A stretch of DNA of 26,232 nt from positions 4,146 to 30,377 of the forward strand of contig DNOY01000251.1 in NCBI GenBank assembly GCA_003501765.1, read 5' to 3'. Positions 13,589 through 16,621 of this stretch are shown here, in pieces. The position numbers were made by a program, and so were the translations under genes. Under the pieces are notes generated by a model that made no database searches, was not told the origin of the DNA, and saw only the letters and a program-made list of their open reading frames with translations. The stretch is from Cyanobacteria bacterium UBA11367 (GTDB taxonomy: Bacteria > Cyanobacteriota > Cyanobacteriia > Cyanobacteriales > Coleofasciculaceae). Numbering within the stretch: position 1 is the stretch's first letter; each line of letters begins with the position of its first letter.

Positions 13589-16500
13589 GTGACTCTGTTA
13601 TCTGCGATCGCATTTACGCTTATTTTATCTTTAATCTGTCTTCTCTTGGGCGGAATCCCGTTGATTTCTTGGATTACATCTGGTTTAACAGGTCGTAAAC
13701 TGGAAGAAATAGGTACTGGTAATATCTCAGTATCGGCGGCATTCTATCACGGGGGACGGATGGTAGGTATCTTGGCAGTATGTTCGGAAGCTTTTAAGGG
13801 AATTGCGGCTGTCTTGCTGGCTCGTTATTTTTTTCCGACTGTACCTGCTTTTGAGCTAATGGCTCTGATTATATTAGTTATCGGTCGTTACTGGATGGGG
13901 AAAGGTGCGGGGACGACGAATGTGGTGTGGGGATTTGTGGTACACGATATTCAGGCTGTATTGTTGATATTTTTAATTGGGGGTATTGGTTTTACGATTT
14001 TTCGCGATCGCACTAGCGGACGTATCGGTATTTTAATTTTATTTCCCTTTGTCTTAGCCCTCTTACACCCTAAGGATTTAGCGAGAATTGCTATGGCGAT
14101 TTGTCTGGGCTTATTAATGGCTTGGATTTATCGCCAAATTCCTGATGATTTAGATCTTTCCCCACAATCGGCAGAGGTGGAGTCTCAAAGTATGTTTCGT
14201 TTTTTTAGGGGCGATAAAGCTATTATTTGTTTAGATGATGCACTAGATCCTGATAAATTCGGGCAAAAGGCAGCAACCTTATCACAATTAAAGCGTTGGG
14301 GTTATCCTGTACCTACGGGATGGGTATTGCCACCGGGCGATGATGCAGGGCCACTGATTGAGTACTTGCCAATTTCTGAATCTGAACCTTTAATAGTCCG
14401 TTCCTCAGCTATAGGAGAAGACTCGGAATCCTCTTCGGCCGCAGGACAATATTTAAGTATTTTAAATGTTAATAATCCATCTGAGTTACAAGCAGCCATT
14501 ATTCAAGTTTTAGCATCTTATAATCAAGCATCAGCTACCCAATATCGGCAAGACTTTACTAGCTCTAATAGTGACGGAGGAGCAGAATTGTCAGATAGAG
14601 CCATGGCTGTACTAATTCAAAAACAAATTAAGGGTGTTTTTTCCGGTGTCGCTTTTAGTCGAGATCCCATTTTTCAACCAGGCGATGCCGTCATAATTGA
14701 AGGATTACCAGGAGATGCCACTAGAGTAGTATCCGGTAAATTTACACCAGAAGAATATAAGGTTTATTTGAGATTAGAGGAGAGAGGAGAGAAGTGGGAA
14801 AGAAAAATAAGATCTAAAGACAATAGAAGGAAAAATATAGTAGAAATAGAAGAGATAAAAAATCCCCCCTCACTCTCCACTCCAACTCACCAGTCCCCAT
14901 TCCCCATCGTCCAAATAGAAGGAAGTGGAAATTTACCTCCAGCTTTACTTGAAAAAGTGGCTATCCTAGCCCGTGAAATAGAAGATCGCTATCACGGGAT
15001 TCCTCAAGATATAGAATGGAGTTATGATGGTGAGGAATTGTGGTTACTACAAAGCCGTCCCATTACAACCCTACAACCAATTTGGACGCGGAAGATTGCA
15101 GCAGAAGTCATTCCTGGCTTCATTAGAAACCTAACTTGGTCAATTAATCGACCATTAACTTGTGGAGTTTGGGGAGAAATTTTTACCCTAGTTTTAGGTA
15201 AAGAAGTAAATGAAATTGATTTCAATGACATGGCTACCCTTCATTACTCCTGTGCCTACTTCAACGCTACCATATTAAATGCTATTTTTCAGCGGATGGG
15301 CTTACCACCAGAAAGCCTCGAATTTCTCACCAGAGGCACTAAATTTACCAAACCGCCACTGAGTTCTACCTTACAAAATATACCAGGATTAATCCGCCTC
15401 TTGGGTAAAGAATGGAACTTAGATACAGAATTTGCCCTAGATGATGAAAAAATATTTAGCATTGCCATCAAAGAGCTAAAAAATCAAAACCCATCAGAAT
15501 TACCACCAGAAGCCATCCTCCAAAGAATAGAAATAATCCTCAAAACCTTAAAAAGAGCCACCTACTACAGTATTATGGCTCCCTTAAGCATGTCATTAAG
15601 GCAAACACTCCTCAAAGTCAAAGACAAAGAATTAGACAACAGCCAAACACCAGAAATTGCCAGTTTGCGATCGCTATCCAGATTAGCAGCAAATGCCCAG
15701 CATTTCCTCAACCTCAAAAACATCGCTGCTGAAAATTCCGCTGTCCTCTTTACCACCATTGCCGAAAATCCTGATGGCGATGCTATTTTACAACAGTTTA
15801 ATCAATTTCTCGAAGAATACGGCTACCTTAGCGAAGTCGCCACAGACATAGCCATACCCAGATGGAAAGAAGATCCTCAATCCGTGCGACAACTCTTTAC
15901 TCAATTTATCTGCCAACCGCCACCAACTCCTACCCCATTAAAACATCAGCGATGGCAAGCCGAAGTAGTACAAACACGTCTCAACTTGAAAGGAAAAGTC
16001 ACCGAAATCTACTCCCAACTCCTAGCCCAACTCCGTTGGAGTTTTGTCGCACTAGAAACCAATTGGCGAGAATCAGGCATGTTATCTCAAGCCGGAGATA
16101 TCTTCTTTCTGGAATTTGGAGAAATTCAGAAATTGGTAGCAGATACAGATAGAAGACTAAAAGCCGAATTACCCCAAATAATCGAACAAAGACGCATAAA
16201 ACTAGAAGAGCATCGCCAACTAACCAACATACCTCCCCTAGTTTATGGCAATCCTCCCGCCACATCTTTTACCACCCCAACCCAACTAGAAACATCCGGC
16301 CGAAGACTAGAAGGAATTGGTGCAAGTAGCGGACAAATTGAAGGATGGATCAAAATTTTAACCAACTTACAGGTAATACCAGAAATTGACCGACAAACAA
16401 TATTAGTCGTACCTTACACCGATTCCGGTTGGGCACCATTATTAGCCCAAGCCGGAGGTTTAATTGCCGAAGTAGGCGGAAAACTTTCCCACGGTGCAAT

Positions 16501-16621
16501 TGTCGCCCGCGAATATGGAATTCCAGCCGTAATGGATGTCCATAATGCCACTCAGTTGTTAAGAAATAATCAGCGAGTTTGGCTAGATGGGCAATTAGGA
16601 ATTATCGAGATTTTGGATTAA
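13589..16621 (+). CDS. Fusion protein: N-terminal PlsY-like (glycerol-3-phosphate acyltransferase family) membrane domain + PEP-synthase/rifampin-phosphotransferase-like dikinase (PPDK_N ATP-grasp + PEP-utilizers His-swivel domain, no TIM-barrel PEP domain)
   Basis: The start is GTG. The N-terminal ~185 aa is hydrophobic with 'GTGNISVSAAF', 'SEAFKGIAAVLLA', 'IGRYWMGKGAGTTNVVWG' and 'FTIFRDRTSGRIGILI', resembling the PlsY motifs GSGNxGATN, DxLKG, GHxxP, GGKGVAT and ERxS. The middle region has 'FGQKAATLSQLKRWGYPVPTGWVL' and 'VRSSAIGEDSESSSAAGQYLSILNV', the PPDK_N signature. The C-terminus has 'LVVPYTDSGWAPLLAQAGGLIAEVGGKLSHGAIVAREYGIPAV', the PEP-utilising mobile His domain. Confidence 0.8.
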   Translation: MTLLSAIAFTLILSLICLLLGGIPLISWITSGLTGRKLEEIGTGNISVSAAFYHGGRMVGILAVCSEAFKGIAAVLLARYFFPTVPAFELMALIILVIGRYWMGKGAGTTNVVWGFVVHDIQAVLLIFLIGGIGFTIFRDRTSGRIGILILFPFVLALLHPKDLARIAMAICLGLLMAWIYRQIPDDLDLSPQSAEVESQSMFRFFRGDKAIICLDDALDPDKFGQKAATLSQLKRWGYPVPTGWVLPPGDDAGPLIEYLPISESEPLIVRSSAIGEDSESSSAAGQYLSILNVNNPSELQAAIIQVLASYNQASATQYRQDFTSSNSDGGAELSDRAMAVLIQKQIKGVFSGVAFSRDPIFQPGDAVIIEGLPGDATRVVSGKFTPEEYKVYLRLEERGEKWERKIRSKDNRRKNIVEIEEIKNPPSLSTPTHQSPFPIVQIEGSGNLPPALLEKVAILAREIEDRYHGIPQDIEWSYDGEELWLLQSRPITTLQPIWTRKIAAEVIPGFIRNLTWSINRPLTCGVWGEIFTLVLGKEVNEIDFNDMATLHYSCAYFNATILNAIFQRMGLPPESLEFLTRGTKFTKPPLSSTLQNIPGLIRLLGKEWNLDTEFALDDEKIFSIAIKELKNQNPSELPPEAILQRIEIILKTLKRATYYSIMAPLSMSLRQTLLKVKDKELDNSQTPEIASLRSLSRLAANAQHFLNLKNIAAENSAVLFTTIAENPDGDAILQQFNQFLEEYGYLSEVATDIAIPRWKEDPQSVRQLFTQFICQPPPTPTPLKHQRWQAEVVQTRLNLKGKVTEIYSQLLAQLRWSFVALETNWRESGMLSQAGDIFFLEFGEIQKLVADTDRRLKAELPQIIEQRRIKLEEHRQLTNIPPLVYGNPPATSFTTPTQLETSGRRLEGIGASSGQIEGWIKILTNLQVIPEIDRQTILVVPYTDSGWAPLLAQAGGLIAEVGGKLSHGAIVAREYGIPAVMDVHNATQLLRNNQRVWLDGQLGIIEILD

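Follow-up and report, generated by a model that had tools for sequence, protein, structure and literature searches.

What does a protein do that joins a membrane domain of the glycerol-3-phosphate (G3P) acyltransferase family to a phosphohistidine dikinase? The question is raised by a gene at positions 13589-16621 (+) of a 26,232-nucleotide stretch of DNA from Cyanobacteria bacterium UBA11367 (GenBank assembly GCA_003501765.1, contig DNOY01000251.1, positions 4,146 to 30,377), to which we refer as the window. Sequence profile searches, structure modelling and the comparison of related loci identify its product as an uncharacterised dikinase of the rifampin phosphotransferase (RPH) type whose membrane part stems from a non-canonical branch of the PlsY fold; the combination is widespread and systematically misannotated. 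With respect to function, our best interpretation, to which we assign a probability of about 50%, is that of a membrane-integral phosphotransferase of the RPH/PigC type (a 'water dikinase') that acts on a lipid or lipophilic acceptor and is neither PlsY nor a phosphoenolpyruvate (PEP) synthase.

Architecture, reality and distribution of the fusion

The gene is a single uninterrupted open reading frame (ORF) of 1010 amino acids (aa) with a GTG start, in which a PlsY-fold domain is followed by a linker, an ATP-grasp domain, an RPH-type central domain, a hinge and a swivelling-histidine domain; NCBI already holds an identical 1010-aa protein (P0001) whose source is a cyanobacterial metagenome-assembled genome (MAG). 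In a Pfam-A scan, PF02660 (G3P_acyltransf) matched residues 17-182 with 60.8 bits against a gathering cut-off of 24.1, and PF01326 (PPDK_N; residues 265-496, 140.3 bits) and PF00391 (PEP-utilizers; residues 934-1004, 77.1 bits) likewise scored above their gathering cut-offs, with no match to the PEP/pyruvate TIM barrel (PF02896). The original prediction for this locus, made from the sequence alone, had proposed the same three-part composition and the same missing barrel, and the degenerate PlsY motifs that it had singled out are present at residues 42-48 (GTGNISV) and 99-102 (GRYW).

The membrane domain, a seven-transmembrane (TM) domain of the PlsY fold, occupies residues 1-190 (13589-14158, like all coordinates of the gene on the plus strand), as judged from Pfam, a profile comparison with PDB entry 5XJ5 and Foldseek. 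It is connected by a linker (residues 191-222; 14159-14254), which contains a conserved FRFFRGD stretch and is otherwise less well conserved (62% identity overall), to the ATP-grasp nucleotide-binding domain (PPDK_N; residues 223-497; 14255-15079), the central helical domain (residues 498-830; 15080-16078) and the swivelling phosphohistidine domain (PEP-utilizers; residues 906-1010; 16304-16618). An AlphaFold2 model of the full protein reached a mean predicted local distance difference test score (pLDDT) of 84.4 and a predicted template modelling score (pTM) of 0.69. Within the ATP-grasp domain, residues 395-445 (14771-14923) form a variable charged insert, rich in Lys, Arg and Glu, which is predicted to be disordered (pLDDT <50) and shows, with 29% pairwise identity, the lowest conservation of any part of the protein.

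The fusion is a genuine gene, neither a frameshift nor an assembly or sequencing artefact, since the same architecture recurs in the 120 best homologues (58-100% identity, all with PF02660, PF01326, PF27448 and PF00391), in at least 571 species-level genomes and in a second lineage that is only ~27% identical. For the genome count, two peptide patterns from the N-domain were searched in a single genome of each GTDB species. The best 80 of these at least 571 loci are cyanobacterial without exception and include Coleofasciculaceae, Leptolyngbyaceae, Phormidesmis, Moorena, Oscillatoria, Nostocaceae, Scytonema, Chroococcidiopsis and Spirulinaceae, among others. Both the concern of the original prediction that a frameshift might have created the fusion and its proposal for a phyletic survey are answered by these results. 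Furthermore, an exhaustive search of 1.84 billion cluster representatives with an N-domain profile returned 341 matches only, and the strong ones among them, down to ~25% identity, are nearly all fusions or fragments of fusions. The second deep lineage lies outside the cyanobacteria and includes proteins named from Dehalococcoidales and from a Lokiarchaeota MAG; its dikinase half is ~40% identical to many standalone dikinases of ~780 aa.

The source databases name the homologues either 'glycerol-3-phosphate acyltransferase' or 'pyruvate phosphate dikinase / pyruvate, water dikinase', and the JGI names include 'phosphohistidine swiveling domain-containing protein/glycerol-3-phosphate acyltransferase PlsY'. 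Both halves are thus already recognised by automated pipelines, and the fusion as such seems to be without a published description: the searchable text of the literature yielded no account of it, nor any of its ortholog SYNPCC7002_A0291 from the model strain Synechococcus sp. PCC 7002.

The soluble part is an RPH-type dikinase

A profile built from 23 diverse fusion proteins (A2) aligned with the Listeria enzyme RPH-Lm (PDB 5FBS/5HV1; PMC4844700) without interruption over RPH residues 111-867, including the central domain (E~1e-96), and RPH-Lm was also the top Foldseek match of the AlphaFold2 model (E=4e-28). In both proteins the three soluble domains follow one another in identical order, with the swivelling His domain at the C-terminus. 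The original prediction had described a two-domain kinase; its ATP-grasp and phosphohistidine domains are both there, but it had missed the third soluble domain at residues 498-830, a homologue of the rifampin-binding (acceptor) domain of RPH that corresponds to PF27448 ('Rph_4th') and is recorded for all homologues. Given this homology, the kinase already carries an acceptor site of its own.

The catalytic residues point in the same direction. Conservation was counted over 70 sequences from the two lineages, 35 cyanobacterial and 35 distant. Lys227, Arg271 and Glu476 are invariant (70/70) and correspond to Lys22, Arg117 and Glu297 of RPH, which are required for the first phosphotransfer, and the equally invariant His968 (nucleotides 16490-16492; 70/70) aligns with the catalytic His825 of RPH-Lm, which carries the phosphate (PMC4844700). 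The RPH-like kinase logic of the original prediction, with the phosphohistidine in GKLSHGAIV (residues 964-972), therefore stands, and by analogy a ping-pong reaction yielding AMP and inorganic phosphate (Pi) would be expected here too. The second phosphotransfer in RPH depends critically on the pair Arg666-Glu667 (PMC4844700). At this position, where the accuracy of the alignment is limited, 34-35 of the 35 cyanobacterial members have Lys801-Gly802 (nucleotides 15989-15994) and 27-32 of the 35 distant fusions have Arg-Glu. The residue at the Arg666 position is always cationic, being Lys in 35/35 cyanobacterial members and Arg or Lys in 34/35 distant ones, and Lys801-Gly802 appears to be a lineage-specific change at the presumed acceptor site.

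Compared with its characterised relatives, the window protein is nonetheless distinct. It is ~18% identical to RPH-Lm, and the rifampin-contacting Gln336/Gln337 of RPH are replaced by Ala505/Glu506. The best NCBIfam matches are the PRK06241, PigC, RedH and RPH models, with scores far under the equivalog cut-offs of the named enzymes (RPH, NF041857, 194.7 bits vs 999; PigC, NF052631, 217.5 vs 1300; RedH, 204 vs 1350), and an N-terminal seven-TM domain of the PlsY fold is found neither in RPH nor in the characterised members of the 'PEP synthase-like' PRK06241 clade, to which PigC, HapC and RedH belong. With PEP synthase and pyruvate phosphate dikinase (PPDK) the protein shares the ATP-grasp and phosphohistidine swivel domains and the ping-pong logic of dikinases, but it lacks the TIM barrel, its His domain is C-terminal whereas that of PEP synthase and PPDK is central, and the scores are low (TIGR01418 PEP synthase, 156.8 bits vs a cut-off of 739.75; TIGR01828, 28.8 vs 843). 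As an observation on the wider family, one related dikinase (P0349; 1083 aa) is fused to short-chain dehydrogenase/ketoreductase domains (PF08659, PF13561 and PF00106) and not to a PlsY-like domain, which implies that the dikinase family recruits varied N-terminal partner domains.

The characterised members of the RPH/PigC clade indicate what kind of acceptor might be sought: RPH phosphorylates the hydrophobic rifampin (PMC4844700), another substrate of the clade is the prodigiosin precursor MBC (PMC13534948), and hydroxyphenylethanones are also among them. The high rank of PigC and RedH in the NCBIfam search, and the presence of ligases of this type in the clade, could also be taken to mean that the fusion is an ATP-dependent condensing enzyme, in which phosphate serves as a leaving group and the product is condensed and possibly lipidated; the PlsY fold, which normally catalyses the displacement of phosphate from an activated acyl group (PMC5700162), would suit such a reaction. 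The distance of the scores from the PigC and RedH cut-offs, the lack of pigment or natural-product genes nearby and a spread over most cyanobacterial orders that is unlike that of a secondary-metabolite enzyme make this very improbable.

The membrane domain has the PlsY fold and an altered active site

In the AlphaFold2 model, the N-domain shows the seven-TM arrangement of PlsY down to the short fourth TM helix (TMH4), with helices predicted at residues 2-22, 25-34, 48-55, 57-81, 87-104, 109-119 (the short TMH4), 121-138, 141-159 and 164-183. In Foldseek it superimposes on all ligand forms of the Aquifex enzyme (5XJ5-8) with TM-scores of 0.72-0.76 and root-mean-square deviations of 2.6-3.1 Å. 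At the sequence level the relationship is remote: a PDB search with the single N-domain sequence gave no match, a profile of the close family reached PlsY with E=0.75 only, and distant fusion members together with proteins of the DD clade described below were needed in the profile (A4, fusion N-domains plus related standalone proteins) to match 5XJ5 with E=1.8e-22. Against the PlsY equivalog model TIGR00023 the N-domain scores 20.7 bits, with a cut-off of 137.2, whereas the canonical PlsYs P0256 and P0241 scored 177.6 and 171.5 bits in the same run.

The residues of the active site were mapped onto Aquifex aeolicus PlsY (aaPlsY) from the printed hidden Markov model alignments, using the functional map of PMC5700162. 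The stretch equivalent to PlsY motif 1 spans residues 42-57 (13712-13759; GTGNISVSAAFYHGGR, whose PlsY counterpart is GSGNVGATNVTRALG). Here Ser35 of aaPlsY is conservatively replaced by Thr43 and Thr41 by Ser49, Asn37 is retained as Asn45 (69/70), and Arg45 is lost to Tyr53. In the equivalent of His92 and the Loop3 'phosphate hole' (residues 99-115; 13883-13933; GRYWMGKGAGTTNVVWG), His92 is changed to Arg100 and Lys104 is deleted with a shortening of Loop3 by 5 residues, while Gly102 and Gly105 are retained as Gly106 and Gly108, so that the glycine-rich turn before the short TMH4 is kept. At the cytoplasmic end of TM7 (residues 181-190, YRQIPDDLDL; 14129-14158), His177 and Asn180 are lost to Tyr181 and Ile184. 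The changes at the G3P-site positions, namely Ser35, Arg45, Lys104 and Asn180 of the phosphate clamp and His177, hold in 33-35 of the 35 cyanobacterial members. The acyl-phosphate site of PlsY, to which Asn37, the side chains of Thr41 and His92 and the backbone of Loop3 contribute, is thus kept in part and altered in part. In aaPlsY the conservative changes are tolerated in part (S35T leaves 17% and T41S 45% of the activity), and those at the other positions are severe (R45A 1.1%, R45K 6%, K104A 7%, H177Y 0.03%, N180A 4.6% and H92K 2%); His92 is 97.8% conserved among PlsYs and no competent substitution for it was found (PMC5700162).

With Arg45, His177 and Asn180 replaced and Lys104 deleted, the G3P pocket of PlsY is, judging from the aligned residues, dismantled in the N-domain. 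The parts of the site that bind a single-chain lipid phosphate by its phosphate and carbonyl groups appear, in contrast, to be largely kept. Like PlsY (PDB 5XJ5-9; PMC5700162), the N-domain has a motif 1 of the Gly-x-Gly-Asn form with the Asn37 equivalent, a motif 2 of the form E/D-x-x-K-G and, ahead of TMH4, the glycine-rich turn. PlsY proper is ~200 aa long and stands alone, whereas this domain is fused to an 820-aa kinase.

These results bear on the names under which the family is stored. That the protein is the cell's PlsY, or else a PEP synthase or pyruvate phosphate dikinase, accords with the names given by the sources and with the Pfam matches to PF02660 and PPDK_N. Both identities were considered and rejected: they are contradicted by the TIGR00023 and TIGR01418 scores, by the loss of the G3P residues along with His92, by the missing TIM barrel and by the C-terminal position of the His domain, as in RPH, and the database names are almost certainly wrong.

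The original prediction had favoured a self-contained fatty-acid kinase and G3P acyltransferase that would bypass PlsX or FakAB, a proposal that the dismantled G3P pocket and the TIGR00023 score do not support. A modified form of it, in which the dikinase turns a free fatty acid into an acyl-phosphate and the PlsY-like domain passes the acyl group on to some non-G3P acceptor, deserves separate consideration. Of the two halves of the PlsY site, that for the acyl-phosphate donor has been preserved better than that for the acceptor (Asn37, Thr41 as Ser, and the phosphate-hole loop), the G3P clamp has given way to a new conserved set of Tyr181, Asp186 and Asp187, and a gene for DegV, a fatty-acid-binding protein of the FakB type, is found in one non-cyanobacterial cluster. 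However, phosphorylation of a carboxylate is known for no member of the RPH/PigC clade, the kinase has its own conserved acceptor domain, the replacement of His92 by Arg and the shortened Loop3 affect the transferase site, and no acceptor-supplying or lipid gene is conserved near the fusion in 80 related loci. Moreover, cyanobacteria have Aas for the recycling of fatty acids. That they already possess PlsX and PlsY is documented in the literature (PMC5716074). Altogether, we consider this modified form distinctly unlikely.

A divergent clade of PF02660 under strong constraint

The N-domain falls outside the PlsY equivalog, in a divergent 'DD' clade of PF02660, in which the motif table and alignment A4 group the fusion N-domains with standalone non-canonical PF02660 proteins. 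The clade is marked by a family-specific acidic pair, Asp186/Asp187; fusions and standalone proteins alike have an invariant Asp187. The standalone proteins (for example P0194, P0202, P0212, P0224 and P0233) come from Chloroflexota and metagenomes and are automatically named PlsY. They have the invariants G42, N45, V48, G56, K70, G99, G106, T110, P153 and D187 in common with the fusion N-domain, likewise lack His92, Arg45 and Asn180, and also score below the TIGR00023 cut-off (68-90 bits); they differ in being ~200 aa long, in having no kinase and in their full-length Loop3.

Among 121 cyanobacterial homologues, the mean pairwise identity of the N-domain (79%) is comparable to that of the ATP-grasp (74.5%), central (75.3%) and His (84.8%) domains, and 26 polar residues of the N-domain are at least 95% conserved. 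Furthermore, Thr/Ser43, Asn45, Glu67, Lys70, Lys/Arg105, Thr110, Tyr181 and Asp187 are common to lineages that are only ~27% identical. Because the conservation of the N-domain matches that of the catalytic domains and a polar set is shared across such distances, this pattern of conservation argues against a passive membrane anchor, a role that the original prediction had entertained for the domain, and suggests that it does more.

This constraint also bears on the proposal that the N-domain is a tether or regulatory module and that the central domain phosphorylates a soluble or xenobiotic molecule, be it in RPH-like detoxification and antibiotic resistance or as a membrane-localised metabolite kinase. 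Such a division would agree with the soluble part being a complete three-domain kinase of the RPH type, with the hundreds of ~780-aa relatives that function without a membrane domain, with the several diverged fusions that lack the GTGN motif, and with a monocistronic gene that offers no pathway context. Yet an anchor would require hydrophobicity alone, and the polar constellation of the N-domain is kept; in addition, the wide and well-conserved spread over cyanobacterial orders suits a housekeeping function better than resistance. The most diverged members are also instructive in this respect. SYNPCC7002_A0291 (P0184/P0277) is a 900-aa ortholog with relatives in NIES-970, PCC 7376 and Limnothrix; in orthologs of this type PF02660 and PPDK_N are no longer detectable with Pfam and both the GTGN and the DD motifs are gone, so that the protein looks like a degenerate or neofunctionalised copy. 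As the Pfam-detectable ATP-grasp is lost along with the N-domain motifs, these members look degenerate overall rather than reduced to an anchored kinase. A mere tether is, in our judgement, unlikely.

A proposed mechanism

The evidence favours what the original prediction had given as its fallback, a membrane-anchored xenobiotic or lipid phosphotransferase, and for this membrane-integral phosphotransferase we propose the following course of events. Given the N-out/C-in seven-TM topology of PlsY (PMC5700162), the kinase would lie in the cytoplasm. There the ATP-grasp domain would bind ATP and the swivelling domain would take up the beta-phosphate on His968, with the release of AMP and Pi, a stoichiometry that is presumed by analogy to RPH. 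The His domain would then swing to the central RPH-like domain, where a lipophilic acceptor could receive the phosphate on a group of the hydroxyl (or carboxyl) type. The N-domain would retain the lipid-phosphate half of the PlsY site, formed by Asn45, Ser49, the glycine-rich loop and helix dipoles, with the G3P clamp lost, and might either hold a membrane-resident lipid substrate or receive the phosphorylated product, so that the soluble kinase would work at the bilayer. Such would be the division of labour between the central and the PlsY-like domains. Since the substrates of the characterised relatives are hydrophobic and the kinase is combined with a membrane fold that binds lipid phosphates, the acceptor would most likely be a membrane lipid or a lipophilic molecule.

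A more specific version can be put forward tentatively, although we regard it as rather unlikely in this form: the PlsY fold would have been repurposed as the membrane acceptor or product site of a phosphohistidine relay, and the protein would be a new kind of ATP-dependent lipid kinase, whose product, a single-chain lipid phosphate, would be formed directly in the bilayer. If so, candidate products would be an acyl-phosphate, supplied by a route independent of PlsX and FakAB, or a prenyl, phytyl or alkyl phosphate, and the enzyme would be conserved over most orders of cyanobacteria, while Chloroflexota and Asgard archaea would harbour its older sister lineage.

A conserved protein of ~1000 aa in at least 571 species-level genomes carries names that fail direct tests, and since this is true of both database names, any reconstruction of lipid or central carbon metabolism in cyanobacteria that builds on these names is in error for this gene. 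The structurally well-understood parents of the fusion make it a tractable entry to the role of the PlsY branch that has no G3P site, and it could equally provide an entry to the substrates of the many uncharacterised RPH-like dikinases. Should the acceptor prove to be a membrane lipid, oxygenic phototrophs would have a new enzymatic way of making lipid phosphates.

Genomic context

In the window, an enolase gene lies upstream of the fusion gene, and an AMP-binding, acyl-CoA synthetase-like gene (17224-18891) is its convergent neighbour, as the original prediction had noted. That prediction had read the latter as a lipid-related context. When the neighbourhoods of the best 80 related loci were compared, however, the enolase, the acyl-CoA synthetase and every other neighbour in the window were absent in 80/80, including a locus with an 82%-identical protein, and de novo clustering of the neighbours identified no partner gene that recurs in more than 12 of the 80. 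The lipid-related context is coincidental. There were no significant promoter or terminator signals around the fusion gene, which behaves, in cyanobacteria, as a lone, monocistronic gene.

Outside the cyanobacteria the surroundings are richer. In two loci (L084/L085), a single same-strand cluster comprises a standalone dikinase, a ferrochelatase/CbiX-like protein of ~410 aa, a 245-aa PF02660 protein, two alpha/beta-hydrolases and a MacB/FtsX transporter. The ferrochelatase-like protein also flanks fusions in L087 and L089, and on another contig its gene is followed by a 240-aa PF02660 gene and a fusion, with the DegV gene mentioned above and a heliorhodopsin gene also present. The association of PF02660 with dikinases thus recurs independently of the fusion, both in the split cluster and where a fusion stands beside an extra PF02660 gene. 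The Lokiarchaeota fusion has genes for GT87, UbiA, DUF362, GtrA, MacB/FtsX and ABC proteins as neighbours. These non-cyanobacterial neighbourhoods point to membrane- or lipid-linked processes; neither the cyanobacterial loci nor the window contain the ferrochelatase-like, DUF362, hydrolase or 240-aa PlsY-like partners.

Against the interpretation of the fusion as a lipid or lipophile phosphotransferase, several observations have to be weighed. The 80 cyanobacterial loci hold no contextual clue to its function. The standalone PF02660 protein of the split cluster belongs to another sub-clade, with the GH motif kept and no DD tail, and because the adjacent protein differs in this way, the split-gene ('Rosetta stone') argument is only partly usable. 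The GTGN motif is deleted in the diverged members P0142 and P0148 and in P0174/P0184 of the PCC 7002 type. The Glu that positions the phosphohistidine in RPH is missing in the cyanobacterial members (Gly802), and with this half of the Arg666-Glu667 dyad gone the acceptor chemistry may differ from that of RPH. Finally, searches of the literature turned up no substrate and no biochemical or genetic data for the fusion.

Some further features of the non-cyanobacterial loci are recorded here in their own right. The ferrochelatase/CbiX-like protein (~410 aa) is membrane-anchored and 52-70% identical between loci (8367-9599 in L084, 10002-11231 in L087 and 10375-11598 in L089); its best NCBIfam match is the Ni-chelatase CfbA (49.5 bits, under the cut-off), and it is often accompanied by an extra PF02660 protein of ~240 aa. 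DUF362 is encoded near the Lokiarchaeota fusion (4162-5343 in L086) and directly beside a standalone dikinase in Methanomassiliicoccales (L081-L083; 7448-8548 in L081), where two genes of CbiA-family amidotransferases follow, and HupE/UreJ and coproporphyrinogen oxidase genes lie nearby in L091. A tetrapyrrole or metal theme is faintly discernible among these neighbourhoods.

Other genes of the window

The window contains three sensor kinases in 26 kb, namely a response-regulator/HisKA hybrid (3726-5150, minus strand), a multi-PAS hybrid (5465-8704, minus strand) and a DICT-CHASE6-GAF protein (22090-24165, minus strand); such kinases are ordinary for filamentous cyanobacteria and have no link to the fusion. 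At 8848-11493 on the minus strand, it encodes an 881-aa, full-length homologue of the major vault protein (MVP), with the Vault, Vault_2, Vault_3 and Vault_4 domains and the MVP shoulder all far above the Pfam cut-offs. To our knowledge, bacterial homologues of MVP are unusual; this one stands beside the fusion gene in 0/80 related loci. The photosystem gene for PsaD, at 21527-21967, marks the window as clearly cyanobacterial DNA.

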